Sequence record: SRR31156797_21439
Reading direction: 5' to 3' (one strand)
DNA length: 34,082 nucleotides
Part shown: piece after piece, positions 806 to 20,557 of the stretch
Layout of the letters: every line of letters begins with the position of its first letter
How positions within the stretch are numbered: the stretch's first letter is position 1
Made by a program: the position numbers and the translations under genes
The notes under the pieces: model-generated
Seen by the model: only the letters and a program-made list of their open reading frames with translations
Told to the model about the DNA's origin: nothing
Database searches by the model: none

Positions 806-2452
806 TTAGCTAACTAGCTGCCCGTTTATCAACTGCCAATGTTGGCAAGAACTTCCTACCCCCTCAGGCTGATGAGCTACTTCCACCACCAACTTATCTT
901 TCCAGTAACTTTGCAAATTACTTCGGATTGTTATCTCCGTTTCCTTGTCTAATGCGCTGAAAGCTTCATCTAAAAAGTAAATTGCCGTGTCTCGCAGCCA
1001 TGCTCGAGCAAGTGCGATTCGCTGAGCCTCTCCGCCACTCACTCTTGATCCATTTAGTCCCAGCTCTGTATCAAATCCATCTTTTAAAGCGGTAAAAAAT
1101 ACATCAAGGCAGACCAACTTAAGTGCCCGCTGTAGAAGTTCATCACTGTAGTTTTGTCCCAAGCACAAATTGTAGCGCAAGCTGGCAGGGAAAATAACGG
1201 TTTGCTGCGGTACATAACAACTGCATTCCCATACGCTAGAACGGTTAGCTTTGTTGATCTCTTCGCTATTGAAACGCAGAGCTCCTTCAGAGACATAGAT
1301 TGCGGCCAGATAACGTAGAAGAGACGTTTTACCACTGCCACTTTCCCCTTGAATGATGACATGCTGATTAGGCGAGAAATGAAGTGTCAAATCCTTAAAC
1401 AACCAGGGCGAATCTTCTGTATAGCGGTGACTCAATTTATCTACCGTTAATAACTGACTCTTAGCTTTTGCTCGATTATCGCTGGCCTTGCTCGTCGACT
1501 CAGATTGGTTTTTTAAATCCAGCATCGATAGAACCCGCTTACAGGCAGGAAAGGTTTGAGGTAAATCTTCAAATGTTCGGGTCAGAGCGAGAACAGGACC
1601 AAAAGCCCCAGCATAGAGACATAACAAAGGCAGCGAAACATCGCCGTCAAGCAGCCACACCTGCAGTACTAACCCTAAGAAGCCCAGACCAATGACAACA
1701 TCCGTTAGTGCATCTTTAAGGCCATTACGTTTGGCCAACTGATGATAGTAGGCCTGCAACTGCTTACCTTGCTCGGCGACTTTGTGTTGGAAAAACGGCA
1801 TTGCTTGCCAGTTTTGAATCTCGCCAGTTCCGCCAACAATGTCCGTCAGAGTTGCATTGAGACTTCCAAAGTCACGTCGTAAGTTTGTGCCCATTACCTT
1901 GCTTCTAAAAAGGTGCCAACCAGGAATAACGAGACCAACCACCAGCAACAGCCCAAACAGAACCAGCGCAGCTTCTCCTGCTATTTGGTAACCATAGAAA
2001 GTGACACACAGTGAAACAATCATCGCAGACATTACCGGAACAATCGTGTGTGCGTAGAACACTTCAATGCGCTCAATATCTGAAACGACTTTCGCGGTTA
2101 AGTCACCAGTAGAAAGCGCTTGGATGTTGTCAGGCGCTTGAGATTCAAGCTGCCAGTACATATGGTTACGCAACGTTTCTTGAATACGAAAAGCTGCGTT
2201 ATGCCCTGATAGCTGTTCGATGTAACGACAAAACGCTTTTCCTATACCAATCCACAAAAGAGGCCATATCAGTTGCGGCCAAAAGTGTTCCGATAGCGGT
2301 TCAAACGAAGGGGCATTAAACAGTTTTTGAGCATAGAGCCCGGCGACAACAAGAATCGCAATAGTCCCTAATTGATTGAGAACCCGACACAGCAGAGATA
2401 AGACTAATGGTACTAAATGAGGTTGAGCAAACTTTAGTAAACGATAAATCAT
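806..2452 (-). CDS. CydC-like type IV ABC half-transporter (fused TMD+NBD)
   Basis: N-terminal TM helices with RYIEQLSGHNAAF (CydC-type RYxExLxxHxxxF) and DIERIEVFYAHT; Walker A GESGSGKTS, signature VSGGE, Walker B IYFLDE, H-loop VAH. Confidence 0.85.
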   Translation of the reverse strand: MIYRLLKFAQPHLVPLVLSLLCRVLNQLGTIAILVVAGLYAQKLFNAPSFEPLSEHFWPQLIWPLLWIGIGKAFCRYIEQLSGHNAAFRIQETLRNHMYWQLESQAPDNIQALSTGDLTAKVVSDIERIEVFYAHTIVPVMSAMIVSLCVTFYGYQIAGEAALVLFGLLLVVGLVIPGWHLFRSKVMGTNLRRDFGSLNATLTDIVGGTGEIQNWQAMPFFQHKVAEQGKQLQAYYHQLAKRNGLKDALTDVVIGLGFLGLVLQVWLLDGDVSLPLLCLYAGAFGPVLALTRTFEDLPQTFPACKRVLSMLDLKNQSESTSKASDNRAKAKSQLLTVDKLSHRYTEDSPWLFKDLTLHFSPNQHVIIQGESGSGKTSLLRYLAAIYVSEGALRFNSEEINKANRSSVWECSCYVPQQTVIFPASLRYNLCLGQNYSDELLQRALKLVCLDVFFTALKDGFDTELGLNGSRVSGGEAQRIALARAWLRDTAIYFLDEAFSALDKETEITIRSNLQSYWKDKLVVEVAHQPEGVGSSCQHWQLINGQLVS

Positions 2453-4047
2453 GCTACCACCTCTTTTAGTTGAACCTTTTCTTCCGTCTTCACTCTAGTT
2501 AAATCGATAAGACGGTCAGCTTGTGCTATCAATTGTGGCGAGTGGCTAATCACTAATACCCCTGCGTTTTGCTTAAGCTGATGCAACGCTTCAATCACTT
2601 TACGCTCCGTACGCTCATCCAGTTGACGAGTAGGTTCATCAATCAGTAATAACGGTTTATGAGATAAGAATGCGCGTGAAAGACCGATTCGCGCCGCTTG
2701 GCCTCCAGAGATATGCCCTCCGCCCTCTCCAAGTTGGTAAAGTAAGTGCTCCGAGTTTGCTCCCAACGGCTCTAATGCTGATAATTTTAATGCCGCATCA
2801 ATATCTTCAGCAGAAGCTAGCGGATCAGCAATCCTGCTGTTTGTTTCTACGCTGCCGTCAAAAATATACGGAGACTGCTGTAAGTAGCCAGTTGCCTGAC
2901 TTGCAATCACACCACTGTCCGGCGTTAACTGCCCTCGAATCAACTTAAACAGCGTCGATTTACCACAGCCACTTTGACCACAAACAACCACCAACTCCCC
3001 TTTATTGACTCTGAGGTTCAGTTGCTCAAAGAGTGGCGTTTGATTGTCGTAACCAAAGCAAAGCGATTGGATATCGAGTACCACTTCACTCGCACTATCA
3101 ATCGCTTGTATTGGATTGTTTTCTGGCATCAATAAAATGCTCTTCACATCATTTTGGACTTCTCTTCCCAGTGCGCCCGCAAAGAAAAAAGCCCCCATTA
3201 GCGATAAAGGACGAATCAACTCAACACTGGCGAGAATAATAAATGCTGCTGTACTGGCCTCAATTAACCCAGCCTGATATCGAGTAATCGCCAGAAGCGA
3301 TGCGGCAATAATGGTTCCGAGAGAGAAAAGTAAGTCAACCAGCAGAATAACCAGTTGATTGGTTTTCAGCAGCGACATGGTAGAGCGTCTCAGCTTCGCC
3401 CCATGCTGCTCAATCGTGCCACCCCACACTTGTGAATGCTGATACAACTTCAAAACAGGCAAGCCATGCAAGCTTTGAGTAAACAACTCGGTCATCAAAG
3501 CTAAGTGATGTTTGTAAGTAGCACTTACGCTAGCAAAGCGCTTAAACACCAACATTAAAATGGCAGGGATGATTGGGATCATTAATAACAAAACCAATCC
3601 AGAAAACGGGTCAATAAGTGCAATGAAGACACAAACTAATAGAGGACCAAGCAAACCAATAAAAAACTGAGGAACAAACAAGCCCCAGTACAAATCCAGC
3701 ACTTCTACGCCTTCTCCAAGTAGATAGTTCAGCTTTCCTCGTAGCTCTGGAGTCAGCTCAGAGGGACGCAACTTGGCGAGCTTTTCTAATAACTGCGCTC
3801 GAATCGTTTGTTTGACTTCAGCAGAGGTTCCGGCACCAAGCGATCGATGCCAAATAATGGTGACGAAGCGGCCTAACAGTAAGGCAACCATTACCATTAC
3901 AACCCAATGAGCCTGTTGCAAGAAATCTGCGGAAAACATCTGACTGACCAGCCAGTACTGGGCAACCAAGGTAAGTATAATGAAAATGCCACTGGTCACC
4001 GTTCCCAGCAACCAAGGTTTTGCACTTTTAGGAATCGCACCGATCAT
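2449..4047 (-). CDS. CydD-like type IV ABC half-transporter (fused TMD+NBD)
   Basis: TM domain with EGVEVLDLYWGLFVPQ and ELIRPLSLMGAFF (CydD-like); Walker A GQSGCGKST, signature ISGGQ, Walker B LLLIDEPT, H-loop ISH; 4-nt overlap with the partner gene. Confidence 0.85.
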   Translation of the reverse strand: MIGAIPKSAKPWLLGTVTSGIFIILTLVAQYWLVSQMFSADFLQQAHWVVMVMVALLLGRFVTIIWHRSLGAGTSAEVKQTIRAQLLEKLAKLRPSELTPELRGKLNYLLGEGVEVLDLYWGLFVPQFFIGLLGPLLVCVFIALIDPFSGLVLLLMIPIIPAILMLVFKRFASVSATYKHHLALMTELFTQSLHGLPVLKLYQHSQVWGGTIEQHGAKLRRSTMSLLKTNQLVILLVDLLFSLGTIIAASLLAITRYQAGLIEASTAAFIILASVELIRPLSLMGAFFFAGALGREVQNDVKSILLMPENNPIQAIDSASEVVLDIQSLCFGYDNQTPLFEQLNLRVNKGELVVVCGQSGCGKSTLFKLIRGQLTPDSGVIASQATGYLQQSPYIFDGSVETNSRIADPLASAEDIDAALKLSALEPLGANSEHLLYQLGEGGGHISGGQAARIGLSRAFLSHKPLLLIDEPTRQLDERTERKVIEALHQLKQNAGVLVISHSPQLIAQADRLIDLTRVKTEEKVQLKEVVA

Positions 4048-4433: not shown

Positions 4434-4520
4434 ATTAAAATCTTTTGAGGTTGCTTGGGTGTATCGAAGTACTGGCTTTAAATGGCAAACTTATCTGGTT
4501 CGCTCTATTTTCTGAAATGG

Positions 4521-4547
4521 AAAAGGGGTGAAGTTGCCTCCACACCC
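4521..4547 (-). terminator. Weak terminator or stabilising hairpin after the hutZ-like gene
   Basis: Minus strand GGGTGTGGAG-GCAA-CTTCACCCC-TTTT: 9-bp stem with one bulge and one G-U pair, GNRA loop, short U tract. Confidence 0.55.
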
Positions 4548-4553
4548 AATACA

Positions 4554-5069
4554 CTAAGCGGCTTCTTCTGTATGTCCTTCGGTTAAATGCACCGCGTGGC
4601 CTAAGTGACAATCCAGCTCAAACGCCTGACCAAAACCCTTAACGTAGTTGCCCGATTTGGGAACAAAGCGGTAAAAACTGAAATCTTTCATTCCGCACAA
4701 CTGGTCAACAATATCGCCATAAGCAGCTTTCATTTGTCGCTTAAGAGGTTCCGCTTCAGGCTGCGTTTTTTCGATATGAACAACATCACAGTCAATCACT
4801 AATCGCTCGCGAGCAAAAAGGTGGCGAGCTTTATCTTCAGGCTCAACCAACATCAACGAGGCTTGAGGATGACACTGCAGATTGCGGGCATGCTTTGACA
4901 CGGTGCTGAGCAACATAATGAAGTCATTGCCATCACGCACAAAAGGGCCGTAACTGGCCAATGGTGTACCTTTATCATCAACCGTTCCTAGTTGAGCCGT
5001 AGAAAACTGTTCGATAAACGCCTGTATACGGGCAGGGAGACGCTGTAATTGTTCTTCGCGATATGACAT
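4554..5069 (-). CDS. hutZ: HutZ/HugZ family heme-degrading protein (PNPOx-like split barrel)
   Basis: Motifs SYGPFV, KHARNL, LFARERL, DF, YVKGFGQAF and C-terminal VHLTEGH align by eye with Vibrio HutZ (SYAPFV, RHARNL, LFARKRL, FVKGFGQAY, VHLEEGH). Divergent, so probably a paralog. Confidence 0.85.
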   Translation of the reverse strand: MSYREEQLQRLPARIQAFIEQFSTAQLGTVDDKGTPLASYGPFVRDGNDFIMLLSTVSKHARNLQCHPQASLMLVEPEDKARHLFARERLVIDCDVVHIEKTQPEAEPLKRQMKAAYGDIVDQLCGMKDFSFYRFVPKSGNYVKGFGQAFELDCHLGHAVHLTEGHTEEAA

Positions 5070-5091
5070 ATCTTTCCTTCCTAAATATCAG

Positions 5092-6495
5092 CTACTCCAC
5101 TAACTGAATTTTGTTCAGCGTGGTAGCAACTTGTTGTAATACGGTTCTAATGGTTCGGTTATCTGACTGGTAATATTGACCAGGACTGGCACAAGATTTC
5201 ACCGATGGGGAGCGGTTATTAAAATCAATCGAGATAATCTCAATCCCTTTGCGCCTCATCTCACGACACAACATCACTTGTTTGCGGTCTCTCACTTGTC
5301 GATTAATCAAGTGATCGCCATCGGTAAACAGCACCATGACTTTTTTATTGGTTTCTAAGCCGTAATCTCGAGGTAACTCTTTCTTGGTTTTATCCCACTG
5401 ACCACGCCATTCAGGTGACAGTAAACGCCATGCCCACATCACGCCTTCAGCATTGTTGGTGTTCATTTCTGGATACAAACTATCAAGGCTGTCGATAAAC
5501 TCTCTGTGGTTTGATTTCCACGCTTGAATGCTGCTCACGCCGCAGTCAATCGAGTCAAACAGAGCCTGGGCATGCTTCCAGTCAGGGTTGTAATTGGGGT
5601 AATTGATTTTTGGATAGTGGGCATACAAAGGCATGCCATTTTGGTACTTCGACTCTGCCGGTTTTTTGCTGGTTTCCAAGTAAAAACGCAGATCTTGCTG
5701 TTTAGGGCCTCGCTCAAGACTACGAATCCAACCCGGATTAATCAGCCCTGCCTTAGTCATACCATCTTGAATTTCCGGCAGTTGCATACACATAGCTTCA
5801 CGCCAGCGGCCAGGTACACCTTCACTAAGCAAGTTTTTCCAACCTTCATCTTTAGCTAATGGTCGCAACCCTCTCGGAATAGCAAGCGCGCTAGATTTCA
5901 TAAAGTGTGGTTGCCAGCCGATATTAATCAGACCGGTGGCCGGAACAATACTGATGGTCTTGCTTAAGTTACGTCTCTCTTCTTCATAAAGAATGTCTGC
6001 AAAATCCCTCAGGCCTTTTATGGCCTGCGACATCGGCGCACCTTCCATTGAGCCAGACACATCAAGCATGATGACAATTTCTAACGTAGTCTGATGCAAA
6101 CGAGCCGAGGCTTGATGGCTAAGACCCACATCGCCAGCAACTAACTCTTCGTTCATAGCCAGTTGGCTGGCTTTTACTTTGCCTGATACCGTCGCCTGAG
6201 TACTTAAATCTTGGCTCTTAAGCTGGCTTCTGGCCCCTGTCAGGCCACTATTATCTTCACCAGCATTGGCCGCCATTAACTGGTTGGCATCTTGAGCAGC
6301 ACTGATACTGTCTGAAGAGGAGTACAGCACTGCATCCGCCAACATAGAAAGACGGCTATCGGAAGTACTACTGACCACAACCAAAACCACAAAACTGAAA
6401 AACGTCAGCATGCCGGAAAGAAAAATCGCGGCAGATGCTGAAATAACGCCTTTTTGTTTGTCGATTGAAGAAACTAACTTAGAAGATCTCAACAT
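5092..6495 (-). CDS. tadG: TadG-like pilus protein with vWA domain
   Basis: Pilin-like N-terminus (KQKG then hydrophobic helix); vWA MIDAS motif DVSGS, plus NTNNAEGVMWAWRLL and VLFTDG; last gene of the tad cluster. Confidence 0.8.
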   Translation of the reverse strand: MLRSSKLVSSIDKQKGVISASAAIFLSGMLTFFSFVVLVVVSSTSDSRLSMLADAVLYSSSDSISAAQDANQLMAANAGEDNSGLTGARSQLKSQDLSTQATVSGKVKASQLAMNEELVAGDVGLSHQASARLHQTTLEIVIMLDVSGSMEGAPMSQAIKGLRDFADILYEEERRNLSKTISIVPATGLINIGWQPHFMKSSALAIPRGLRPLAKDEGWKNLLSEGVPGRWREAMCMQLPEIQDGMTKAGLINPGWIRSLERGPKQQDLRFYLETSKKPAESKYQNGMPLYAHYPKINYPNYNPDWKHAQALFDSIDCGVSSIQAWKSNHREFIDSLDSLYPEMNTNNAEGVMWAWRLLSPEWRGQWDKTKKELPRDYGLETNKKVMVLFTDGDHLINRQVRDRKQVMLCREMRRKGIEIISIDFNNRSPSVKSCASPGQYYQSDNRTIRTVLQQVATTLNKIQLVE

Positions 6496-7012: not shown

Positions 7013-7483
7013 TTAATCAAACAATAAATCTTGAGAGGCAATCACCGTGCTGCGAAACACCAGCGGTTCTGAATAAAACGCGGCTAACGGGCTAAACTGC
7101 AACTGAGTTTTCAAGGTCGCCGAAACCCGAAACACCGGATCTGCCGGGCGAAAAACACGATTCTCATCTTGCTCTTCTTCTTCAACATTGAGTAACTCAT
7201 TGAGCGAGTTATAACGGGTAATATCAACGTCTACAGCGTCAATAAACCCATAGCTGTTACCCTTAATCATTCCCTTCACCACCCCGATATTCAGTGGTTT
7301 TTTGCGCCAATCTTCAGCAATGAGTTCACGCAATGAGTGACGCATAGCATGTTCGAGCAAACTGTATTGCAGGTGCACTCGGGTAATATCAAAAAACACC
7401 AGTAGTACCGTCAGCACGGCTGGCAACAATAAAGCGGTTTCGATGCTGATTACGCCGCACTGAGATTGACGTTTAGTACTCAT
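7013..7483 (-). CDS. tadE: TadE-like pseudopilin
   Basis: Class III signal QCG^VISIETALLLP with Glu at +5; position in the tad operon. Confidence 0.8.
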   Translation of the reverse strand: MSTKRQSQCGVISIETALLLPAVLTVLLVFFDITRVHLQYSLLEHAMRHSLRELIAEDWRKKPLNIGVVKGMIKGNSYGFIDAVDVDITRYNSLNELLNVEEEEQDENRVFRPADPVFRVSATLKTQLQFSPLAAFYSEPLVFRSTVIASQDLLFD

Positions 7484-8265
7484 CTTTTTGCTCGAATCGC
7501 CGCTATGCGAGAGGACAAAATGGCGATATCTCGCTCAACCTCACTGGCTGGTAGGTGACGAGCAAGCAGAGCACGAGCATCATTCTCATTACCTTCAGCG
7601 AGTAGCAACAACGCAAAATTCAGTTCAACCTGAAGCGGAAGATGCTGATAAGCGAGCAATGGCGAAAACACCTCGCGGGCCTTTTCGACTTGATCCTGAT
7701 GTAAATAACTCACGGCTAGATTTGAACGGAAAAAAGGCTCATCAGGCGAAAGTAAAATTGCCCGTTCTAACTCTGTACGCGCTTGAGCTGGCTGAGTCGC
7801 GAGTAAGGCAACACCCAACCCATTATGTAACTGTGCTTGAACCTTTCTGTTTTGGATTTCGCTGTTCTCTGCTTTAGAGACACCGAGCTGATAGACCGCG
7901 ACCGCTTCTGGCACTCTGCCTTCATTAAGTAAAAAACGACCTAGATAGACACAAGACTCCGCTGAAATCGCATCATCGCTGGCACAAACGTAGCGCAGTT
8001 TTGCAATCGCAGTTTCTTTCTTATCTTGATGATACTGGCTTCGCCCAAGCATCATTTGATACTGCAAATTGTCAGGCGATGACTCAAGCAGAGCAAAATA
8101 CTGAGCTTCCGCTTTATCATATTGACCGTAGTTAAATGCGGCTTCAGCTAACGTTTTGGTATTGGATTCCGTCTGTTTTTTCACTTTGCTCGGTGTAGCA
8201 CAACCGATAAGTAGAGAAGTTAAACAAGCCAACAAGCACATACGCACAAAACGACTATTCATCAT
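7480..8265 (-). CDS. tadD: TadD TPR lipoprotein (secretin pilotin-like)
   Basis: Lipobox LLIG^C; TPR-like repeats (HNGLGVALL, RSNLAVSYL, LNFALLLLAEG). Confidence 0.8.
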   Translation of the reverse strand: MMNSRFVRMCLLACLTSLLIGCATPSKVKKQTESNTKTLAEAAFNYGQYDKAEAQYFALLESSPDNLQYQMMLGRSQYHQDKKETAIAKLRYVCASDDAISAESCVYLGRFLLNEGRVPEAVAVYQLGVSKAENSEIQNRKVQAQLHNGLGVALLATQPAQARTELERAILLSPDEPFFRSNLAVSYLHQDQVEKAREVFSPLLAYQHLPLQVELNFALLLLAEGNENDARALLARHLPASEVERDIAILSSRIAAIRAKR

Positions 8266-9170
8266 TTCAAACTCTCGAGTAATAGGTTCATGGTTGGCGC
8301 GACAATCAACACCATTAAAGGCAGCATGATGAACGCCATTTGAATTAAGGTGATACGACCCGGCAACTTACCAGCTTGCTCCTGCAGCGACATTTTCCGC
8401 TGCTGCCTCGCATCACTACTAATGGTTCGCATTGTTTCAGCCAGAGGTGAGCCATAGCGTTCCGCCATCGCCAAAGTATTTGCCAAACGTTCCAGTTCAA
8501 TAAGACCGGTGCGCCACGCCAGTTTTTTTAAGCACTGCGCGGATTCACCGCGTACTTGGATTTCGGCGTAAGTCCGTAGCATCTGTTTTGCGAGCATAGG
8601 CTCAACATCCATCAGATATAGACCCACTTTTTCCAGCGCCCGTTCAAGGGATAAACCAGCCTCAACGCTGATGACCATTAGATCTATCGCGTCAGGCACC
8701 ACTTGTTGCTGCTTCTGCTGCGCTTGAGCCGCCTGACGTCGTAGCCAATATTCCGGAGAATTCGAACCCATCACGTAACCAATCAGCACCACCATAACGG
8801 TATACGCACCGAACAACTCTCCTTCGAACGCTTGCCACACGATGCCTAGTGTCGCGGCCATTAAACCGAGAAATAGTTTGGCACCAAGCACAGTTAGTAA
8901 CATCGCAGGTCCAGCTTTTCCGGCATGTTCCAGCATCTGCTTTAAACGATCAGCTTCCTGTTCCGATACCGGATACAAAGCACCAAGAGACACAAAGAAT
9001 GATGACGATTCAGGTTGAGAAACCGCGTGTTTATCGATGCTTGAATATCGCTGACACTGCAACTGCCAGGCGGTTTTTGTTTGACGAGATAAAAACAGCC
9101 ACAGCAAAGTGCTCATAAACACCATGCCGGCAACCAGTAAAACCATCACTACAGGGTTCATATTCATCAC
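8262..9170 (-). CDS. tadC: TadC inner-membrane platform protein (T2SS-F family)
   Basis: VPDAIDLMVISVEAGLSLERAL and AERYGSPLAETMR motifs; several TM segments. Confidence 0.9.
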   Translation of the reverse strand: MMNMNPVVMVLLVAGMVFMSTLLWLFLSRQTKTAWQLQCQRYSSIDKHAVSQPESSSFFVSLGALYPVSEQEADRLKQMLEHAGKAGPAMLLTVLGAKLFLGLMAATLGIVWQAFEGELFGAYTVMVVLIGYVMGSNSPEYWLRRQAAQAQQKQQQVVPDAIDLMVISVEAGLSLERALEKVGLYLMDVEPMLAKQMLRTYAEIQVRGESAQCLKKLAWRTGLIELERLANTLAMAERYGSPLAETMRTISSDARQQRKMSLQEQAGKLPGRITLIQMAFIMLPLMVLIVAPTMNLLLESLK

Positions 9171-10070
9171 TTACCCCTTTAACTGCGTCATGCGGCGAAT
9201 CAAGAACAACCCGCCAAGAATACTGCCGACCACGTACGCCATCACCATCTGTCCACCCGCCGATGTCATCAGGAAGTCGAAATGCTCGCGGCCAGTAGAA
9301 AACAGCACCAAGCAAACTAGGACTGGCAAAGCAGCAAGTACTTTGGCGGAGTTTCTCGATTCAGACGTGATGCTTTGGATACTGGCATTCAGTTCAGCGC
9401 GGGATCTCAAGGTAGCCCCTAATCTCTCAAGTACTTCCGTTAAACGCCCGCCAGTTTCCTGCTGCAAACTCAGTACGATGGTTAAGAAACGAAACTCCGC
9501 AATCGGCATACGTTGTGCGGCTGACTTCATCACTTCATCCAAGCTCTGACCCACGCGTAGCTCATCATTCATTTTGGTAAACAGACGAGCGGTCACATCC
9601 TGATGCTGCTGAGCAATTTCCAGCAGAACGTCCGCCATTGGGGCACCAACACGTAACGCTCGAATCAAGCCATCAATCACATCCGGCAGTTCATTACGAA
9701 ACTTATCTTTCGCTTTTTGCTGAAGCTGTTGATAGATAAACCACACCACCAAAATCGCTGTCGTCAATGCCAACGGTACAGCCACATACCAATCCATCCC
9801 GTTGAAACAAAGCACTAAAGGCGCAAGCAAAACTGAGCCCGCCAACATCCACTGCCCCTGTTTCAACTTCTGAGGACTGACAAAAGTTTGCAGGTTTTGA
9901 TACCACAGCCAGCTATACCAAGGAGGTTGATAGCCCGTGCTACCATCATCGACATCTAACAGGGCATAGCGTTTAAGCTGATTACGCCAAGCTTCTTGGT
10001 GCTCGATATAACGCCACACAGCAACGCCAATCACGAGCCAAGCGACGATTATGTAAATCAACACGCTCAC
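9171..10070 (-). CDS. tadB: TadB inner-membrane platform protein (T2SS-F family)
   Basis: ELPDVIDGLIRALRVG and LQQETGGRLTEVL motifs; TM segments. Confidence 0.9.
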   Translation of the reverse strand: MSVLIYIIVAWLVIGVAVWRYIEHQEAWRNQLKRYALLDVDDGSTGYQPPWYSWLWYQNLQTFVSPQKLKQGQWMLAGSVLLAPLVLCFNGMDWYVAVPLALTTAILVVWFIYQQLQQKAKDKFRNELPDVIDGLIRALRVGAPMADVLLEIAQQHQDVTARLFTKMNDELRVGQSLDEVMKSAAQRMPIAEFRFLTIVLSLQQETGGRLTEVLERLGATLRSRAELNASIQSITSESRNSAKVLAALPVLVCLVLFSTGREHFDFLMTSAGGQMVMAYVVGSILGGLFLIRRMTQLKG

Positions 10071-11368
10071 TCACCACTCTCCACACATTGTTGAATCGCT
10101 TGGTCTTGGGCGAAGTGAGCCGCTTTTTCTATCAGATCGTTAGAGATGGCATGAGCGCTAAAACGGCCATGAATGGTTTGCTGTTCGGCACGAATAAGAT
10201 CGAAACGAAACACAGGGCTAAGCTCGATCTCTTCACCCTTGATACCAACCACTTCACTGATTGCCGTAATGCGGCGACGCCCGTCTCGCATACGCTCTAA
10301 CTGCACCACTAAATCAATCGCACTCACGATTTGGCTGCGGATAATATGATCCGATAATCGCTCACCGCCCATTTGCAGCATGTTGGTCAGTCGCACAATC
10401 GCATCTTGTGGGTTGTTCGCATGCAAGGTACACAGAGAACCATCATGGCCGGTATTCATTGCTTGCAGCATGTCGAAGGCTTCAGCGCCACGAACTTCAC
10501 CCAAAACAATTCTGTCCGGACGCATCCGCAGCGCGTTCTTCACCAAGTCACGTACGGTGACTTCACCATTACCCTCAGAACTGGCGTTACGCGTTTCCAG
10601 TGGCACCCAATGCGGTTGCGCCAGAGACAACTCTGCTGCATCTTCAATAGTAAGAATCCGCTCGTCTTCACTGATATGACGACTAAGGGCGTTCAGCAGT
10701 GTGGTTTTGCCAGAGCCCGTACCGCCGGAAATCAAAATATTGCAGCGACAATAGGTCGCTAAAGCCAAGAACTCCGCCATCTGAGTAGAAAGACTTTCGT
10801 TATCAACCAGATGGGAGAGCATTAACTTGCTGGCAGGAAACTTACGAATAGAGATACACGTACCATGCAATGCCAAAGGCGGTGCAATCACGTTCACACG
10901 GCTGCCATCTTTTAAACGCGCATCAACCATAGGGTTGGATTCATCCACCCTACGACCAATCGCATTCACTATACGTTGAGCCACATTCAGTACATGCTTG
11001 GAATCGCGAAAACGGATGTCTGTCTTCTCTAACTTGCCACGGCGTTCAACGTAGATCGTTTCAGGTCCGTTAACCAAAATATCGGACACTTCTGGGTCTT
11101 CGAGTAACGCCTGAATAGGACCAATCCCCACCATTTCATCGACCAGTTGCAGCGCTAACACCGCCAACTCTTGTCGGTTATAAGGCAGCATCTTCCTTGC
11201 CGAAATGATGTTCAGAGCATCTTTAACACGAGGCAATAGTTCATCACGCCCCAGCGTGGCGGCGATCGAAGGATCAACCAGCTCGTAGAATGCGGATTTT
11301 GCTTCATCAGACATCGATAGCAGTTGTGAGCTGCGAGCTTGTTGAGTTAACACTTCTTGCTTAAACAT
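10067..11368 (-). CDS. tadA: TadA/CpaF pilus assembly ATPase
   Basis: Walker A GGTGSGKTT, Asp box TIEDAAEL, Walker B RPDRIVLGEVRG, His box MNTGHDGSLCTLHAN. Confidence 0.95.
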   Translation of the reverse strand: MFKQEVLTQQARSSQLLSMSDEAKSAFYELVDPSIAATLGRDELLPRVKDALNIISARKMLPYNRQELAVLALQLVDEMVGIGPIQALLEDPEVSDILVNGPETIYVERRGKLEKTDIRFRDSKHVLNVAQRIVNAIGRRVDESNPMVDARLKDGSRVNVIAPPLALHGTCISIRKFPASKLMLSHLVDNESLSTQMAEFLALATYCRCNILISGGTGSGKTTLLNALSRHISEDERILTIEDAAELSLAQPHWVPLETRNASSEGNGEVTVRDLVKNALRMRPDRIVLGEVRGAEAFDMLQAMNTGHDGSLCTLHANNPQDAIVRLTNMLQMGGERLSDHIIRSQIVSAIDLVVQLERMRDGRRRITAISEVVGIKGEEIELSPVFRFDLIRAEQQTIHGRFSAHAISNDLIEKAAHFAQDQAIQQCVESGE

Positions 11369-11373
11369 TCGGT

Positions 11374-12501
11374 TTACCCTTTTTGCTCAGAAGAAGGGCT
11401 GCCTAGCAACTGTCCAAGCTGGGTAATTTTTTTGCTCAGCTTTGTTCGCGCGGCCAGCAAAGGCGCACCCTCACGCTCTGATTTATCAATGGCTTTTGCA
11501 TCAAACGGAAGCTCAACACTGATGTTCAAACCCAAAGTGTTTGAGATTTCCTGTTTTGGCACTCGCCCTTTCGCATTGCGGCACAGGTTACCCACCAGAA
11601 TCTGACGTTGATGCTTGAGTGAAGTATTTGCCGTAAGTTTGGCTAAATAACGGAAACTATTGAGGCTGTAGTCGGTGACAAAAATACAGTTATCAGCCTG
11701 CTGCAAAATGGCTTTCATTGCCGGATGATTCAAATCCGGCACATCAACAATCACCGTTGCGTAGTGCTCGGCTAAAGCTTGTACTGTTTTGACCGGTTGA
11801 GAAACGTCATCATGGGAAAGCTGACTGTCTTGACCGTAAAAAAGGTGCAGGCGATCGGTCAATTGTTGGCTACTGTGCGCCAGCAGGGTTTCATCGATAC
11901 GCTCGGCATCTTGGATAATGTTTTCAAGGTGCGGTTCGTAGTCAGCACCAAGCAGAATTGGGTGCTGGCTGTGATACAAATCAAAATCGACCAAAGCCAC
12001 AAACTGGCTCTGCTTTTCAGCCAGAAAATAACCTAAGTTCGCTGCAATCGTGCTGGTGCCACATCCACCAGTACTACCAAGAACGCAGATCACACGCCCT
12101 TGACGTAAAGGTTTCGCAATCTGATAGCCTTGTAAATGCAGCAAGCTTAAGCGAATCGCATCAATATCCAGTGGCGTAGTGTGATAATCGTTAACGCCAG
12201 CAAACATTAAACTGCGGTATAACGCGACTTCTTGCTTATTACCTAACACCATCAATTTCATTTGTGGTGGGCAATATTCGGCAAGACCTCTTAAAGCAGT
12301 TTCAAGACCAATACAGTCACCGCCGTCGACTACCAGCAGATCAGGCGCACCGTGTTTTACGCACCACTGGCGAGCATCCTCAATGGTGCCTTTACGTATC
12401 TCAATATTCTGAGTAGTGAGATTACTCTTCAGTTGCTCGAAAACTTTGTGGCTATGATCGTCAAGAACAAAAGCAACAACGTTAAATACACTCTCTGCCA
12501 C
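11374..12501 (-). CDS. tadZ: TadZ/CpaE MinD-like localisation protein
   Basis: Receiver-like N-terminus (LYRSLMFAGVNDY) and a deviant Walker A GSTGGCGTSTIAANL; GTG start. Confidence 0.85.
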   Translation of the reverse strand: MAESVFNVVAFVLDDHSHKVFEQLKSNLTTQNIEIRKGTIEDARQWCVKHGAPDLLVVDGGDCIGLETALRGLAEYCPPQMKLMVLGNKQEVALYRSLMFAGVNDYHTTPLDIDAIRLSLLHLQGYQIAKPLRQGRVICVLGSTGGCGTSTIAANLGYFLAEKQSQFVALVDFDLYHSQHPILLGADYEPHLENIIQDAERIDETLLAHSSQQLTDRLHLFYGQDSQLSHDDVSQPVKTVQALAEHYATVIVDVPDLNHPAMKAILQQADNCIFVTDYSLNSFRYLAKLTANTSLKHQRQILVGNLCRNAKGRVPKQEISNTLGLNISVELPFDAKAIDKSEREGAPLLAARTKLSKKITQLGQLLGSPSSEQKG

Positions 12502-13067: not shown

Positions 13068-14489
13068 TTAGTAGTTGTAGCCATAGTTGCCAAACAAACG
13101 AGTACGATCATCATGGGTATCTCCCATATCTCTCAGGAATAGTCGTTCGAAACGGTTAGCGGGACGGAAACGATCCAATGGTGTAGTCAACTGACTCGGA
13201 TCGCTGGTTGGCTCAACCAGGCGAGCGGTGGCAATGATCACCAGTTCACTCTCTGAGTTCTTGAAACTATTGCTACTAAAGAAAGGCGCGAGAATTGGGA
13301 TTTCACCAAGGAATGGCAAAGACTCGATCTTGTGGTCCTGATAGGTGCGAACTAGCCCTGCCAACGCAAAACTTTGTCCATCCGCAAGTTCAATGGTGGT
13401 CGTCGCTCTGCGGCTTTCAATTCCCGGCACTTCAACGCCAGCAATAGAAACACTGTGCTCACGGCTTAAAGTAGACACTTCCGGAGCAACCGTTAGGCTA
13501 ATCTGATTATTACTCAACACAGTTGGGGTCAGCTCTAATGAGATACCAAATCGTTTGAACTCAATGCTGACGCCTTCGTCACTGTTATCGACAGGGAAAG
13601 GAAACTCACCGCCGGACATAAATGTCGCCGCTTCACCGGATTTCGCGGTTAAGTTAGGTTCTGCAAGCACATTCACTAAGCTGTTTTCAACCAGCGCATC
13701 AATGATTACATTCAAACCATGTTGACCATCAGTTGGCATGGTATTGGTTGGAAACTTGTTGCCCGGAGTAATACCCAGTGCCGTTTGTAACGTGTCCCAA
13801 GTACCCCAACGCATATTACCGATAGAGCTCCAACGCAGACCAAGTTGCTCACTGGTGGAACGCTCCATTTCAACAATTCTGACCGAAATATTAACCTGAG
13901 CACTGCCTGAGGTTTTTAGCTGATTCACCACCAGTGGGTACATACCAATACCGCCACCAGGTTTAGCAACCCCTTCACTGCGACCACCCGCACTGCTTTG
14001 CTGAGGAGCGACCGCTAAATCTTGCTCATCTTTTTGCTGTAAACCTTTGGCAAAGCCTGAAGCCATACTCAGGATATCGTGGGCTTGCAACGCATTAGCC
14101 ACCTCACCCATGACTATGATGGTTCCTTTGCTATAGGCAAAGTGAACATCAGCCTCAGGGAAAGCGTGCCTAACACTGCGTTGTAAATCGGAGAGATCGG
14201 CAGAGATAGAGACTTGATAATGAGCTAAGGTTTGCGAATCTTCGCCCAATAACAAAACATCGGTTTGGCCTAAGGCTTTACCAGATAACATCACATGTCG
14301 ACTTGAAGGCGCATGAACAACCAACAAGCTAGGATCAGAAACAAAAACGTCCTTAATATCTTCTTTGACCGATAAAATACGATTCTGGTTAATGTGCAAA
14401 TCCAGTGAGTGCTGCGTTGACTTCGCCAATAGAGAAAATGGCATCATCATCAACGCGGTTAAAAAAGTTAATTGTCTAAACATCATCAT
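13068..14489 (-). CDS. rcpA: RcpA/CpaC outer-membrane secretin
   Basis: Signal peptide; secretin motifs LAEPNLTAKSGEAATFMSGGEFP, ELADGQSFALAGL and LPFLGEIPILAPFF. Confidence 0.93.
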   Translation of the reverse strand: MMMFRQLTFLTALMMMPFSLLAKSTQHSLDLHINQNRILSVKEDIKDVFVSDPSLLVVHAPSSRHVMLSGKALGQTDVLLLGEDSQTLAHYQVSISADLSDLQRSVRHAFPEADVHFAYSKGTIIVMGEVANALQAHDILSMASGFAKGLQQKDEQDLAVAPQQSSAGGRSEGVAKPGGGIGMYPLVVNQLKTSGSAQVNISVRIVEMERSTSEQLGLRWSSIGNMRWGTWDTLQTALGITPGNKFPTNTMPTDGQHGLNVIIDALVENSLVNVLAEPNLTAKSGEAATFMSGGEFPFPVDNSDEGVSIEFKRFGISLELTPTVLSNNQISLTVAPEVSTLSREHSVSIAGVEVPGIESRRATTTIELADGQSFALAGLVRTYQDHKIESLPFLGEIPILAPFFSSNSFKNSESELVIIATARLVEPTSDPSQLTTPLDRFRPANRFERLFLRDMGDTHDDRTRLFGNYGYNY

Positions 14490-14492: not shown

Positions 14493-15380
14493 TTATCTCA
14501 CTGCACTTCTTTCTTGCGTTCGGACTTCTGTACCAGCAAAAATCCTAATGGAATGTTCAGGCTTACCTGACGGGTGATGGTTTTCAGACAACTGCTCGTC
14601 CCACAAAGTCTTTGGGCTATTAAGCTGAGCAATATCTTGATCGCGATGACCACGCAGTATCAGCGAAAGTCCACCAAGCTGTTTCGCCAATAGCAGACGC
14701 TGAGCGCCTTCTGGTGTGACTTCAAACGTGACTGGAAGGGTTTCTCTCGATCCGGATAAATCTTCATTTGCCTTACTTTGTTTTGGCCCATCTAACAGGT
14801 GGGTCAGCGTACTGTTGATCGCCAGTAAACGCGTGTTCTGCAAAATCACACTAGTCGCATGCTTGTTAATCTCACCGAATCCCTGACTAGAGGTATGAGT
14901 GTTTTCACTGGTAAGAATCACGTCAACGAAATTGCCAGGACGAAGCATGTCGTAATTCATCCCCGCTAAGGTCATCTCAATGGTTACCGCTCGCATGCCT
15001 GGCGATAACATTGCCGACATATATTGGCTCTGCTCCGGACGAATAATGTCTGACATCACTAACGGCTGATTAGCTCTAACCGTTCGGGTAAGTAGACTGC
15101 CTTCAATATCACCGGGCTCGATAAAGCCTTGTAAAAACAGTTCGTTGAAATCGGCTTCTTTATCCGACTCTAAAGGCTCCCAACGTAGATCTTCGCCACG
15201 GATTAAAGCACCAGCTTGAATCGGATATTTTGCGACCAGCACCTTGGGAACAACGGCTTGATTAGCCATTTCCGCCACGGTTGTTTCTGTCTTTTGCTTG
15301 GGTTCAGTATCAAACCAAACCAACGCAAGCATGCCACTCAACACCACTCCGCTGAGCAAAATAAAAATTAATTTCTTCAT
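14493..15380 (-). CDS. rcpC: RcpC/CpaB pilus assembly protein (SAF domain)
   Basis: N-terminal TM, VLVAKYPIQAG, PGMRAVTI, PGNFVDVILT and VTFEVTPEGAQRL motifs. Confidence 0.9.
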   Translation of the reverse strand: MKKLIFILLSGVVLSGMLALVWFDTEPKQKTETTVAEMANQAVVPKVLVAKYPIQAGALIRGEDLRWEPLESDKEADFNELFLQGFIEPGDIEGSLLTRTVRANQPLVMSDIIRPEQSQYMSAMLSPGMRAVTIEMTLAGMNYDMLRPGNFVDVILTSENTHTSSQGFGEINKHATSVILQNTRLLAINSTLTHLLDGPKQSKANEDLSGSRETLPVTFEVTPEGAQRLLLAKQLGGLSLILRGHRDQDIAQLNSPKTLWDEQLSENHHPSGKPEHSIRIFAGTEVRTQERSAVR

Positions 15381-15389
15381 GAGTAAGAG

Positions 15390-15833
15390 CTACATGTAGT
15401 GGATGGTTGTCATAGCTGCGCCGCAGATAGCTACTGCATAAGGCACTGTTTGGGATGGTGTTCCTATAATTACGCCATGCCGAACCATTCGATTAAAAAC
15501 TAGATAAATGACACTCAAAGCTCCCCCTAACAGTGCAGTTGTCATCAACAACCAATACCACTGCTCTAACGATGCGTATGCACATATAGCCAACAATTTG
15601 GAATCTCCGGCTCCTAACCAACCACGGTGAAAAGCAAAAATGCCAAAAGCTAAAATGGAAAAACAGACCAACAAAGAGGAAACAGAAAACGGAGTGTTTA
15701 CGCTAAGCACCACTATCAAAATGAATAGCAATACATTAGGAATTTCACGCTTAAATACGTCATTTACAGCAATAACAGCCAATACACCTGCCGTTATCAT
15801 CTGTAATGAAAAGTCACTACTACTCTCCACCAC
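15390..15833 (-). CDS. tadV: TadV/CpaA prepilin peptidase (A24)
   Basis: Two catalytic Asp motifs NDVFKREIPN and LGAGDSKL; C-terminal VPYAVAI. Exact start uncertain. Confidence 0.88.
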   Translation of the reverse strand: MVESSSDFSLQMITAGVLAVIAVNDVFKREIPNVLLFILIVVLSVNTPFSVSSLLVCFSILAFGIFAFHRGWLGAGDSKLLAICAYASLEQWYWLLMTTALLGGALSVIYLVFNRMVRHGVIIGTPSQTVPYAVAICGAAMTTIHYM

Positions 15834-16063: not shown

Positions 16064-16102
16064 TGAGAATTATTATCGTTACCATTGTAAAAATCAATCT
16101 CA
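16064..16102. promoter_or_regulatory. Two Fur-box-like sites upstream of flp
   Basis: TGAGAAT-T-ATTATCG (16064-16078) matches the 7-1-7 consensus TGATAAT-N-ATTATCA at 12/14; TAAAAAT-C-AATCTCA (16088-16102) matches at 10/14. Confidence 0.65.
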
Positions 16103-16278
16103 TTTATATAATAATCCTAAATTATATCCATTTTACAGATCAATAGACCTTATTTATTGATAATTGCGATATTAACATCTTTTACAGTACGAAATAATGA
16201 ATGATAATTTTTGTGGTGGGTCGCATTTTTAGCATCGTTATCTCGTATTAATTACGTGATTGTGCAAGGGAACGAATA

Positions 16279-19200: not shown

Positions 19201-19776
19201 GATGATGGTGTGCTCGGCGCTCGTTACCTCAAGTTGGACAGCACAGGTAAGCCACTTGCACGTCAGGACTTAAGTTACCAAGCTTTGTCTTTTGCTTGTG
19301 TAGTGGATGCTCATACTGGTCTGGTGTGGGAAACCAAACACCAACGTGGTGATGATGAAGACTACAGTATCTATGACAGCGACAACATGTTTGTTATTCA
19401 ACCTGCGGATGGAGCCACCCAATTTGGAGGAACATGCACCCTACACGACAGTAACCAAGTTTCTACTGACCCTAATCAGTGTACTGTCGCCAAACAAATC
19501 GAAACATTCAATAACCTAAAGCGTTGCGGACTTAGCAACTGGCGAATGCCAACCTTCCATGAAGCATATGCTCTGGCAGATTTTAACGCCGAGTCGTCAG
19601 GTATTGATCATCTTTACTTTCCGCACATACAAGCAATGTGGTTAGACGCACCTAATTTCAACACTACGACTTACCTTTCATTATCTTTACAGAACTTGAA
19701 CGCTATCGGAACCGACATCAATCACCACAAGCCGTTAATGTTAGTGAGCGATGGCTTTTATGTTAAACAACCATAA
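16279..19776 (+). CDS. Large lipoprotein with EF-hand-like loops, an Fn3 domain and a C-terminal DUF1566 (Lcl-C) domain
   Basis: Lipobox VLAG^C; P/S/T/G-rich tether; DSNNDGMVDEKE loop; Fn3 pattern VTIGW...GYTLAW...GLELDTQYYIRVQS; DUF1566 motifs CVVDAHTGLVWE and CGLSNWRMPT. Confidence 0.8.
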   Translation: MLFKQLIAFSAIIFVLAGCSDQPMQEGGTTPPSKGDNTNGVNNSTPDGAADSGSQPPSLTDPTSGNDNSPITPPAASSLSRKSLTISGSVSGSQAEDTYAFKACVGQVCDSWQQVMSEGMYQRKFHLSQWSTNVPLTIEGNKQANPASQPADAIDALSSSYFKTEVAPFEQLIKRDSNNDGMVDEKELATLSLNSVNMAFHAIAKHLLSTELSNVGNLPYEAKLKAVRQHLSNNNKKALLTLSDSQISKVKSHLFWNQNNKFFGEYSLLLTPEQWADLDGPLISDDQKIIKINTSQFEQIKANQKSLNLSVKQTNAIHKRQVYTQQLVLELAALYQMILKPSTTDLVFRQHDGRALVEEIESNTVTTNYNLPISSEMLKTIGMFDIPNDNESKIEISLDTMTSAYETYQNSTSQSSRGDFPVALRHTLWSTADKTLEQIGQQLLKVADSESSLELWQHYQNEFAPNHRSVPVYQELSKVLTPDTQKSYLYQNYTQDLRKAGHTHPLKPALLALAAERHLKISGRFPKELEQVTLKIVLGSQPNPDPGIVIYQPELLDQYPERHLPVDLIDNENQRHKELNLTGENDFITTIALRDIDNLYSHCQPGLIGYSDYTADEMQDTLTIHIHDEKTGVELRSILGSFCEIAQLDQKLGNKNGVLSFEEFERLNVGYISTAQAALLFKSSLTKWGGTNNIVPLNLEDIVDRYNQLPRKQVELLAAFMALQAKGTLFSSSIDLGEQGRLYKDLLALLDISFGGYSLSKNNAIPSVETLQDKIANRYAINQVLIENPDVNISHIIQAITQNLVNSEVDQYYFPSGVRPGSWVTVYPVSVIDATCQKTMQENQLVGLRIEGKGQNEFGHWVTIGWDEQAGASGYTLAWSDTPFNHIDTTQNVLPINELGNTRTTVSGLELDTQYYIRVQSNTGSPSALLSYSPSNIHVADSRVIDGLSGDDSTRGRDLSSECDPLTGKAKNSNDDGVLGARYLKLDSTGKPLARQDLSYQALSFACVVDAHTGLVWETKHQRGDDEDYSIYDSDNMFVIQPADGATQFGGTCTLHDSNQVSTDPNQCTVAKQIETFNNLKRCGLSNWRMPTFHEAYALADFNAESSGIDHLYFPHIQAMWLDAPNFNTTTYLSLSLQNLNAIGTDINHHKPLMLVSDGFYVKQP

Positions 19777-19786
19777 GGAGTAACAC

Positions 19787-20557
19787 ATGAAGTCTTTAAC
19801 ATTAAGCCTTGCTATCACTATCAGTACCAGCTCTGTGTATGCAAATGAAACCCAACAAGAGTGTAGAGCGGGAGCAGAATCAAACCCTAACAATCGCTTC
19901 AGCCAGCATACCATTACTACTGATACAGGCGATTATAAGGTTATCAATGACGCAGCAACCGGATTGCAATGGAGCTATTGCTTTGTCGGTCAACAACTGG
20001 ATGGGAACGGAATCACATGTGAAGGGCAGCCAATTGTGCCATACGATTTTGAAAAAAAAGAGTCCGGATTCCCAAATGTTCGCCGAGTAACCATGGAGCA
20101 AGTGCAACGAGAGAATCAACGTTTAGGTGCACATAAACCGTCATGGCGGCTACCCAATATCAAAGAGTTACTCAGTATCTATAATGAAAGCTGTAATCCC
20201 GCGATCTATCCGATATTTAGTTATGCTATGAATGTCCCATCTCAAGTCTTAGCGGAATTATCTGAGGGACGCCCTGCGGGTGATGAGGAGGCCGTACTTG
20301 AAGCGGCACTTGAAGCTGCAAATGAAGAGGGTGGACAAACCGGTAGGGACAGAGCAGCTCGTATAAGAACAGCCATACAATACAAAGCAAAGGCATATCA
20401 AAACTACACCTTAGTTTCAGACACGGCTTTAATAGACAATACGTATAAAACTTATTACAACATTAACTTTAAAGGATGGGGGGGCATGTTTAATACCATC
20501 CAAGGTGTCCAACCAACGGGCTTATTAAGACTCGTCCGCGAGATCCCACAACCTTAA
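19787..20557 (+). CDS. Secreted DUF1566 (Lcl-C) domain protein
   Basis: Signal peptide ending SSVYA; motifs INDAATGLQWSYC, WRLPNIKELLSI and terminal LRLVR; strong SD TAAGGAG, 10 nt after the upstream stop. Confidence 0.8.
   Translation: MKSLTLSLAITISTSSVYANETQQECRAGAESNPNNRFSQHTITTDTGDYKVINDAATGLQWSYCFVGQQLDGNGITCEGQPIVPYDFEKKESGFPNVRRVTMEQVQRENQRLGAHKPSWRLPNIKELLSIYNESCNPAIYPIFSYAMNVPSQVLAELSEGRPAGDEEAVLEAALEAANEEGGQTGRDRAARIRTAIQYKAKAYQNYTLVSDTALIDNTYKTYYNINFKGWGGMFNTIQGVQPTGLLRLVREIPQP

Follow-up and report, generated by a model that had tools for sequence, protein, structure and literature searches.

The tad locus of Aggregatibacter actinomycetemcomitans has the gene order flp-tadV-rcpCAB-tadZABCDEFG, and the same order and families from flp to tadG occur in the stretch of DNA analyzed here, sequence record SRR31156797_21439, whose full length of 34,082 nucleotides is called the window throughout. 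In the window, this Flp/Tad pilus operon runs on into genes resembling hutZ, the DUF454 family (YbaN) and cydDC, a heterodimeric ATP-binding cassette (ABC) transporter, and two proteins with an Lcl_C domain (DUF1566) are encoded on the opposite strand. YbtPQ and IrtAB are exporter-fold ABC transporters that import iron chelates. Escherichia coli CydDC is described in the available text of PMC10374445 as a heme exporter, in which His85 of CydC is the invariant axial ligand and its loss abolishes heme binding. The Legionella adhesin Lcl, which has Lcl_C at its C-terminus, recognizes sulphated glycosaminoglycans, according to the available part of PMC11162425. That iron limitation induces a Vibrio Tad locus is already known from tad1 of V. 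vulnificus: flp-1 was up ~131-fold under dipyridyl iron limitation in the available text of PMC6748444, and tad genes were up in iron deficiency in that of PMC7137831. The Introduction of PMC6748444 describes tad1 as induced under iron-rich conditions and its Results, with the same reference, as induced under iron-limited conditions; the paper's own data are for induction by iron limitation.

Our analysis points, with a probability of roughly 60%, to a Fur-controlled Tad adhesion locus that in one clade has accreted a separable, Fur-linked inner-membrane module of heme type. Most likely, the pilus and the module would share one switch and not one machine. The first unit would be a Vibrionaceae family of Flp/Tad operons with its divergent Lcl_C pair and a Fur box over the −10 element of flp; Fur would repress the flp promoter, and low iron would switch on adhesion pili, as seen for tad1 of V. 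vulnificus. The second unit would be the HutZ paralog, the DUF454 protein and the CydDC-like heterodimeric ABC transporter, all of them inner-membrane or cytoplasmic, which would have joined the 3ʹ end of the operon in one clade. The substrate that the ABC pair, possibly with the DUF454 protein as a partner, carries across the inner membrane may be heme or an iron tetrapyrrole related to it, which the HutZ paralog may then bind or degrade in the cytoplasm.

All positions refer to the whole window, and genes were assigned from a list of open reading frames (ORFs) and from Pfam and NCBIfam scans of 28 ORFs. The flp-tad operon and the genes appended to it all lie on the minus strand in the order flp, tadV, rcpC, rcpA, a gene for 185 amino acids, tadZABCDEFG, hutZ-like, DUF454, cydD-like and cydC-like. 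These scans bear out the initial annotation, made from the sequence alone, which had described a complete flp-tad operon continuing into hutZ-like, ybaN-like and cydDC-like genes; tadF and tadG are assigned by position and conservation. The hutZ-like gene is preceded by a ribosome-binding site and starts 22 nt past the tadG stop, 120 nt separate it from DUF454, and the DUF454/cydD-like and cydD-like/cydC-like pairs overlap by 4 nt each. Because the tadG/hutZ-like gap of the window measures 22 nt and no terminator-like site was found in it, transcription from the flp promoter probably continues into the module. Domains of TonB-dependent receptors, TonB/ExbBD or periplasmic binding proteins were found in none of the 28 ORFs, as the same annotation had stated for the locus. 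Within the window, the Pfam and NCBIfam scans returned neither HutW nor HutX, the Pfam scan no cydAB, and no Rfam family was found.

Orthologs were counted in a sample of 401 Vibrionaceae genomes. Nine of these genomes carry an ortholog of the CydD-like protein (at least 58% identity), the next best match being 27% identical, and only 16 clusters scored better than ~1e-60 when a collection of 5.8 billion proteins was searched with the CydD-like protein; the named clusters are all Vibrio. With nine of 401 genomes and named clusters that are all Vibrio, the module is therefore a small, Vibrio-restricted subfamily. We fetched 40 kb around each of the nine orthologs and found the full block, from the Lcl_C genes to cydC-like, in seven of them (G001-G004, G318, G358 and G377). 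In the eighth genome, G231, the Fur-box block, a tadV-like gene (49% identical), hutZ-like, DUF454 and the cydDC-like genes lie between rep and a cytochrome c gene; no flp, rcp or Lcl_C gene, no further tad gene and no remnant of these was found at that locus, and the best TadA of this genome (55–57% identical) belongs to a different tad locus. In the ninth, G305, cydD-like, cydC-like and DUF454 genes occupy the interval from hrpB to mrcB with no tad or HutZ gene there, and the 114-bp region upstream of them holds a Fur box that matches the classic consensus at 16 of 19 positions, a score matched by 0 of 5000 shuffles. In each of its three settings (the tad loci, G231 and G305), the module thus has a Fur box in front of it.

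Seen from the pilus side, TadA matches of at least 59% identity occur in 22 of the 401 genomes, that is, the seven with the full locus and 15 others (TadA 59–83% identical), all 15 of which were fetched. The orthologous tad loci of these 15 genomes are without the HutZ-paralog and CydDC-like genes, and every one of them keeps the Fur box and the Lcl_C pair. All four module genes are missing from 12 of the 15; two loci have DUF454 only (G271 and G285, with tadG followed by DUF454 and then a cytochrome c gene), and one has DUF454 together with hutX-hutZ. In the last of these, G396 (locus L102, 1485-4218), tadG is followed on the same strand by DUF454, HutX (206 bits) and a HutZ of canonical type (269 bits), and this hutZ is a second copy, another HutZ being encoded elsewhere in the genome. 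The opposite strand of this locus carries a second, shorter DUF454 gene and a gene for an NAD(P)-binding protein. In three of the 12 loci devoid of module genes (G360, G241 and G315), the genes downstream are unrelated and encode an MFS protein, a flavin adenine dinucleotide (FAD) oxidoreductase, a GH18 protein, a flavodoxin-like protein, a pyridoxal phosphate (PLP) enzyme and a methyltransferase.

A quick maximum-likelihood tree, computed with IQ-TREE from RcpA, TadZ, TadA, TadB and TadC, placed the eight full loci (the window and seven genomes) in one clade with a support of 100 in the Shimodaira–Hasegawa-like approximate likelihood ratio test (SH-aLRT). The sister group of this clade consists of G396 and three module-less loci; G271 and G285 come next, and nine outer loci carry no module gene at all. 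As the eight full loci form one clade, the association counts as one evolutionary event. The initial annotation had regarded the pilus, the secretin, the surface proteins, the ABC pair and HutZ as one module, had proposed to look for tad loci accompanied by the heme genes, and had reasoned that orthologous tad loci usually lacking these genes would speak against it. The full module accompanies the orthologous tad locus in seven of 22 genomes, which fall in one clade, and 15 of the 22 loci are without the heme genes, the very outcome that it had named as contrary; with the module of G231 and that of G305 standing separately, one obligate module is not borne out. Placement between rep and a cytochrome c gene is common to the window, G001 and G231, and the data suggest that this insertion point is a variable or island-like site.

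The control element of the locus lies in the 258-bp intergenic region between its two arms. When the window was scanned with the Fur core consensus TGATAATNATTATCA, the box listed in Table 1 was the sole site with two mismatches or fewer in all 34,082 bases, and such a site arose in 1.2% of 5000 shuffles of the intergenic region (29% G+C). It overlaps the predicted −10 element of flp, and the surrounding promoter/Fur-box block of ~55 bp is nearly identical between full loci whose proteins share only 60–90% identity. All 23 orthologous loci examined, eight with the module and 15 without it, have a Fur box with zero to two mismatches upstream of flp. It occupies the same aligned position as in the window in the other seven full loci and in G231, and in the 15 module-less loci it lies 23–103 nt upstream of flp and is usually unique in the 20 kb fetched. 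As a positive control, 42 of the 75 other HutZ-centered loci described below (L006-L080) contained at least one Fur site. Between tadG and cydD-like, the window has no Fur-like site with three mismatches or fewer. Where several Fur-box-like sites had been seen between the divergent arms, one strong site remains and the other stretches are weaker; the proposed iron control of the flp promoter is supported in silico by a Fur box kept over the predicted −10 in 23/23 loci.

The HutZ paralog matches V. cholerae HutZ (3tgv) with an E value of 3.8e-30 and is ~42% identical to canonical HutZ proteins. Of the 14 heme-pocket positions of V. cholerae HutZ given in the available text of PMC3472187, ten are identical in an alignment of the two proteins (Ser42, Tyr43, Pro45, Ser58, His63, Arg65, Phe88, Arg92, Asp132 and Phe133), four are changed (Ile60 to Val, Ala61 to Ser, Arg62 to Lys and Thr94 to Val), and the equivalent of His170 is kept in the paralog as H166. 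The gene lies outside any hutWXZ-type operon. A HutZ-type scan with one genome per species confirmed at least 534 relatives among 600 matched stretches, and the best 80 loci were kept. Five of them (L001-L005) are 78–91% identical and all have tad, hutZ-like, DUF454, cydD-like and cydC-like genes in this order; they come from a metagenome-assembled genome (MAG) of Vibrio sp. (L001), V. hepatarius (L002 and L005), Vibrio sp. J1-1 (L003) and a Vibrionaceae MAG (L004). The remaining 75 (L006-L080) are at most 49% identical, without tad or DUF454 neighbors and with scattered weak ABC matches only, and protein clusters that bear the names of V. diazotrophicus, V. natriegens and V. mimicus fall outside these best 80 loci. 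The genomes from which L001, L002, L003 and L005 derive all (four of four) encode a canonical HutZ (265–304 bits) on another contig, the tad-linked copy scoring 155–166 bits; G231 also has a canonical HutZ above the cut-off elsewhere. Since related genomes hold a canonical HutZ on another contig, the tad-linked HutZ is a second, divergent copy. A canonical heme system in the window organism itself is suggested by its relatives only.

Both ABC genes were compared with the CydD and CydC families. Against the E. coli-type models NF008379 and NF008364 they score 190.5 vs 684 and 238.4 vs 630, and the best NCBIfam families other than CydC and CydD are MsbA for the CydC-like protein (148.5 bits) and LssB for the CydD-like protein (136 bits). 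E. coli CydC (7zd5_C) matches the CydC-like protein with an E value of 1.8e-46, and E. coli CydD is absent from the 48 PDB sequences matching at E 1e-30 or better. In an alignment to E. coli CydDC, the equivalents of CydC His85 and Arg77 are kept in six of six proteins (that of the window and five relatives), and the residues of Walker A, signature, Walker B and H-loop are invariant in both ABC proteins (for the CydD-like protein, in 11 relatives). Separate canonical CydD-like matches are found at ~25% identity in related genomes.

The DUF454 gene overlaps an ABC gene by 4 nt in both gene orders, that of the window and that of G305. In P0033, a metagenomic protein of 692 amino acids, DUF454 (residues 3-117) is fused N-terminally to a CydD-like ABC protein that is 32% identical to that of the window, and the fusion mirrors the order DUF454 to cydD-like of the window. 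No longer fused relative came up in a search with the DUF454 protein, which is weak evidence, P0033 having come from the CydD-like search, and a complex prediction of the DUF454 protein with the two ABC membrane domains scored 0.00, which is uninformative either way. Among 57 sampled genomes with a homolog (E 1e-18 or better), 14 have DUF454 directly downstream of tadG, ~5 kb past tadA and on the same strand. Some of these belong to a distant tad family (G167/L117, G200/L122, G335/L123 and G398/L124), whose TadA is ~53–55% identical and whose DUF454 lies 9–79 nt past the gene in the tadG position wherever the latter gene was detected. No Lcl_C homolog was detected in these four loci, and the region upstream of flp holds a Fur-like site in G167 (two mismatches) and a weaker one in G200 (three). 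A Fur-like site was also seen upstream of flp in the separate tad locus of G231 (L115), which is related to the distant family. A FastTree analysis of DUF454 covered ~125 residues and did not retain the G305 copy. No functional study of DUF454/YbaN was found among the literature matches listed.

Each of the 22 orthologous loci fetched, even those with TadA identity as low as 59%, has homologs of both Lcl_C proteins, and the large one is divergent from flp; its 12 aligned orthologs (~1000–1200 amino acids) all have a lipobox. The Lcl_C proteins travel with the tad locus and not with the heme genes. They had been assigned a part in heme capture, which is not supported; they follow the tad locus in all 22 cases, also where the heme genes are absent. 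An AlphaFold model of the lipoprotein (12 sequences, mean predicted local distance difference test score (pLDDT) 72.5) gave a Foldseek/VIA-align match for Fn3 only, at residues 841-936 with a Z score of 10.8. The whole-model fold search gave no hint of heme capture, residues 80-830 not having been searched as separate domains, and a Protein Atlas comparison of residues 20-860 gave a best score of 0.84 and no lead. No collagen-like repeats were seen in the two proteins. The pair are probable adhesins, one of them a lipoprotein, and no description of their association with a tad locus was met in the literature consulted on the locus.

Several observations weigh against a pilus locus and a module that share only a switch. 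The CydD-like gene is attached to the tad locus in seven of the nine genomes that have it, with a tadG/hutZ-like gap of 22–38 nt. Because such additions are seen in the window clade and in G396, HutZ-family genes have joined this kind of operon past tadG twice, which is more than simple chance adjacency and may point to a functional tie. An intact block from Lcl_C to cydC-like occurs at two different chromosomal sites: one lies between rep and the cytochrome c gene (window and G001), and the other, of V. hepatarius type, has the same left flank as the locus of module-less G360. DUF454 occurs past tadG without the ABC pair in G271, G285 and G396 and in G167, G200, G335 and G398 of the distant family. 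V. vulnificus tad1 is likened to the locus by its iron response, not by established orthology to the window family. A heme substrate is made less secure by the changes Arg81 to Gln and Arg136 to His in the CydC-like protein, by Phe/Phe at the equivalents of Tyr311/His312 in the CydD-like protein, and by scores of the HutZ, CydC and CydD families that are all below the curated cut-offs. The heme link drawn by the initial annotation for the appended genes rests on residues that are kept, those of the HutZ pocket and the equivalent of CydC His85, and is weakened at these altered contact residues. A substrate such as heme, or a tetrapyrrole related to it, is reasonable but not secure, and uptake and utilization is tentatively favored for the module, at somewhat less than an even chance, over export, which appears less probable, and over a non-heme substrate, which appears less probable still. 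Genes that need expression in iron starvation may accrete onto a Fur-controlled operon, and this would also predict both the recurrence of DUF454 and HutZ and the intact block.

The picture first proposed, in which the pilus, the secretin and the Lcl_C proteins would take hold of a heme source and heme would enter through the ABC pair to have its iron released by the HutZ paralog, would be in line with probable co-transcription behind one Fur box, with the retained HutZ pocket residues and CydC His85 equivalent, with the two separate arrivals of HutZ-family genes at tadG-DUF454 (window clade and G396), with a block intact in two chromosomal contexts, and with a composition for which no paper was found. 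We nevertheless consider it improbable: 15 of the 22 orthologous tad loci have the Fur box and Lcl_C but no HutZ-like or CydDC-like gene, the G231 module has no pilus operon or Lcl_C and the G305 ABC pair with DUF454 has a Fur box of its own, the full loci are a single evolutionary event, the locus encodes no outer-membrane heme route, related genomes have a canonical HutZ elsewhere, and Lcl_C is known from an adhesin that binds glycosaminoglycans (PMC11162425, available part). A looser functional tie, in which an iron-starved cell would adhere through pilus and Lcl_C to a heme-rich surface (host tissue, prey or detritus), DUF454 would link the Tad platform to the heme unit, and HutZ-family genes would have been recruited twice, seems just as doubtful. 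Alternatively, the module could serve the pilus, with DUF454 as a Tad accessory protein and the CydDC-like pair exporting a reductant or cofactor for assembly or maturation of the pilus or the Lcl_C proteins. The position of DUF454 directly past tadG in 14 of 57 DUF454-holding genomes, from two tad subfamilies, is consistent with such a service, as is the exporter function of CydDC, the closest ABC family (PMC10374445, available part); in G305 and G231, however, the ABC pair and DUF454 persist where there is no pilus operon, most tad loci of the family work without the ABC pair, and it is not obvious what a HutZ paralog would do in pilus assembly, which leaves little room for this idea.

Within the module itself, the direction of transport could be the reverse of that favored. 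An exporter, turned on by low iron as a host-like signal and acting in heme or tetrapyrrole detoxification or in the delivery of a periplasmic cofactor rather than in acquisition, is suggested by kinship with the CydDC heme exporters and the kept His85 equivalent (PMC10374445, available part), by nucleotide-binding domains that look intact in both proteins, and by the lack of an encoded binding protein. We hold it to be unlikely, since Fur-repressed genes usually act in iron acquisition, HutZ-family proteins act on imported heme, and G396 has at the same position hutX-hutZ, which are utilization genes. An exporter fold is also compatible with import, as in YbtPQ and IrtAB, which take up iron chelates. 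That the four genes are merely adjacent, with a promoter of their own unrelated to iron, could be read from the 120-nt gap before DUF454 and from the lack of a Fur-like site (three mismatches or fewer) between tadG and cydD-like; a tadG/hutZ-like gap of 22–38 nt that contains a ribosome-binding site but nothing resembling a terminator, and a module preceded by a Fur box in each of its three contexts, make this very improbable.

Hints of expression came from two seawater metatranscriptome libraries, whose contigs, 90–99% alike, cover parts of the tad and module genes. One RNA contig spans 4396-5001, across the hutZ-like/DUF454 gap; another, 5054-5675, overlaps hutZ-like by just 16 nt, too little to be taken as a bridge between tadG and hutZ-like. 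Since strand, ends and level are not shown by these contigs and DNA may be present, they are a weak hint. A full-text literature search for a tad locus combined with HutZ found only unrelated Azospirillum genome papers, and one on V. natriegens, Fur, iron limitation and pilus only unrelated work. The earlier statement that no described system has this composition agrees with this search.

The operon carries the core of a Tad/Flp system, with the Flp motif and the TadV A24 peptidase and with RcpA, RcpC, TadZ, TadA and TadB/TadC assigned by Pfam (Table 1). Homologs of the 185-amino acid gene are found at the same position in 22 of 22 fetched orthologous loci (29–95% identity). It had been called cpaD-like; a conserved gene is indeed present at that position, and the Pfam and NCBIfam scans gave no family match for the name.

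Table 1. Features of the locus, with positions in the 34,082-nucleotide window (aa, amino acids; TMD, transmembrane domain; NBD, nucleotide-binding domain)
Feature	Position	Strand	Evidence
CydC-like ABC half-transporter (TMD-NBD), 548 aa	806..2452	-	TIGR02868 272.6 vs cut-off 329; ABC_membrane + ABC_tran
CydD-like ABC half-transporter, 532 aa	2449..4047	-	TIGR02857 312.3 vs cut-off 435
DUF454 (YbaN-like) small inner-membrane protein, 129 aa	4044..4433	-	PF04304 114.6 bits
HutZ paralog, PNPOx split-barrel, 171 aa	4554..5069	-	TIGR04110 159.2 vs cut-off 225
tadG-position gene, 467 aa	5092..6495	-	Position and conservation in all orthologous loci; VWA matches below threshold only
tadF-position gene, 168 aa	6495..7001	-	Position and conservation; no Pfam/NCBIfam match
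tadE pseudopilin	7013..7483	-	TadE PF07811 30.2 bits
tadD TPR protein	7480..8265	-	TPR families
tadC platform protein	8262..9170	-	T2SSF 48.3 bits
tadB platform protein	9171..10070	-	T2SSF 52.9 bits
tadA ATPase	10067..11368	-	T2SSE 216 bits; TIGR03819 344.1
tadZ, ParA/MinD-type	11374..12501	-	AAA_31, ParA and CbiA matches
Conserved gene between rcpA and tadZ, 185 aa	12504..13061	-	No Pfam/NCBIfam family
rcpA secretin	13068..14489	-	Secretin 140.9 bits; T2SS-T3SS_pil_N 57.2 bits
rcpC/cpaB	14493..15380	-	RcpC 85.5 bits; TIGR03177 162.5 vs cut-off 71
tadV prepilin peptidase	15390..15833	-	Peptidase_A24 40.8 bits
flp pilin, 66 aa	15820..16020	-	Flp_Fap 48 bits; processing motif ENG/ATAIEYG
Fur box, 7-1-7 core	16064..16078	unstranded	2 mismatches to core; 15/19 to classic 19-mer consensus
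Promoter-like site for flp	16069..16097	-	TTGATT, 17 nt, AATAAT; consensus scan, 9/12
Lipoprotein, Fn3 + C-terminal Lcl_C, 1165 aa	16279..19776	+	Lcl_C (PF07603) 39.2 bits vs cut-off 34.9; lipobox LAGC
Exported Lcl_C protein, 256 aa	19787..20557	+	Lcl_C 35.0 bits vs cut-off 34.9; signal-peptide-like N-terminus

The block is flanked in the window by a cytochrome c gene (332-733) and by rep (20596-22611). Past rep lie an RND efflux pair and then ilvC and ilvY; the pair, at 22828-27107 between rep and ilvC, consists of an RND adaptor and a pump of the RND_permease_2 type (1415 bits, above the cut-off). An RND efflux pair with ~26–35% identity to that of the window lies past tadG on the same strand in G050 (L106), G094 (L107) and G198 (L108), which are three more of the 12 tad loci devoid of module genes; the pump was seen in all three, and the adaptor passed the reporting filter in G198 only. 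Further genes of the window, for a CopR/CusR-like response regulator with a histidine kinase (30391-32335) and for an N-acetylglucosamine (GlcNAc) phosphotransferase system (PTS) IIBC protein (32420-33901), are ordinary flanking genes.

A Fur box at the flp promoter of every orthologous locus examined suggests that Tad pili may be under hard-wired iron control throughout the family in Vibrionaceae, a trait which until now was one observation in V. vulnificus and which is here always paired with uncharacterized Lcl_C proteins. The Vibrio-restricted CydDC-like subfamily is likewise uncharacterized; with Fur boxes in three contexts, DUF454 beside it, and the HutZ paralog in the window clade and in G231, it is a candidate for inner-membrane heme movement without a binding protein. 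For DUF454/YbaN, whose function is unassigned, these Fur-linked neighbors give a first iron or heme context. More generally, accretion of genes onto the end of an operon with a fitting switch can mimic a single machine when one genome is read.

Compared with described systems, the HutZ paralog shares with V. cholerae HutZ the split-barrel PNPOx family and ten of 14 pocket residues, including His63, Arg92 and Asp132, along with the His170 equivalent, and is set apart by an identity of ~42% to canonical HutZ proteins, a score of 159 bits vs a cut-off of 225, the absence of a hutWXZ operon and its status as a second copy. For both ABC genes E. coli CydDC is the best-scoring family, and the two pairs have heterodimeric half-transporters and CydC His85 and Arg77 in common; unlike CydDC, the window pair stands behind a Fur box and beside DUF454, with no cydAB in the window and with changed CydD and CydC contact residues. 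YbtPQ and IrtAB resemble the pair as heterodimeric exporter-type ABC proteins under iron control and without a binding protein, and might be the model if the module imports, although neither ranks in the top 25 among the 154 and 187 NCBIfam families listed for the two proteins and no IrtA-type extra domain is present. The likeness to the Legionella pneumophila adhesin Lcl lies in the Lcl_C domain, which is just above the Pfam cut-off in both window proteins; unlike Lcl, these are without collagen-like repeats, and one is a lipoprotein of 1165 amino acids with Fn3 and a large unmatched N-terminal part. Relative to the tad locus of A. actinomycetemcomitans, the window adds the 185-amino acid gene, the Lcl_C pair, the Fur box and the four appended genes. 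HutZ, DUF454 and CydDC-like genes are unmentioned for V. vulnificus tad1 in the available text of PMC6748444, in which the word heme occurs 0 times, and tad1 nevertheless resembles the window locus as a Flp/Tad operon of the same genus that is induced by iron limitation, a response that the Fur box described here would fit.

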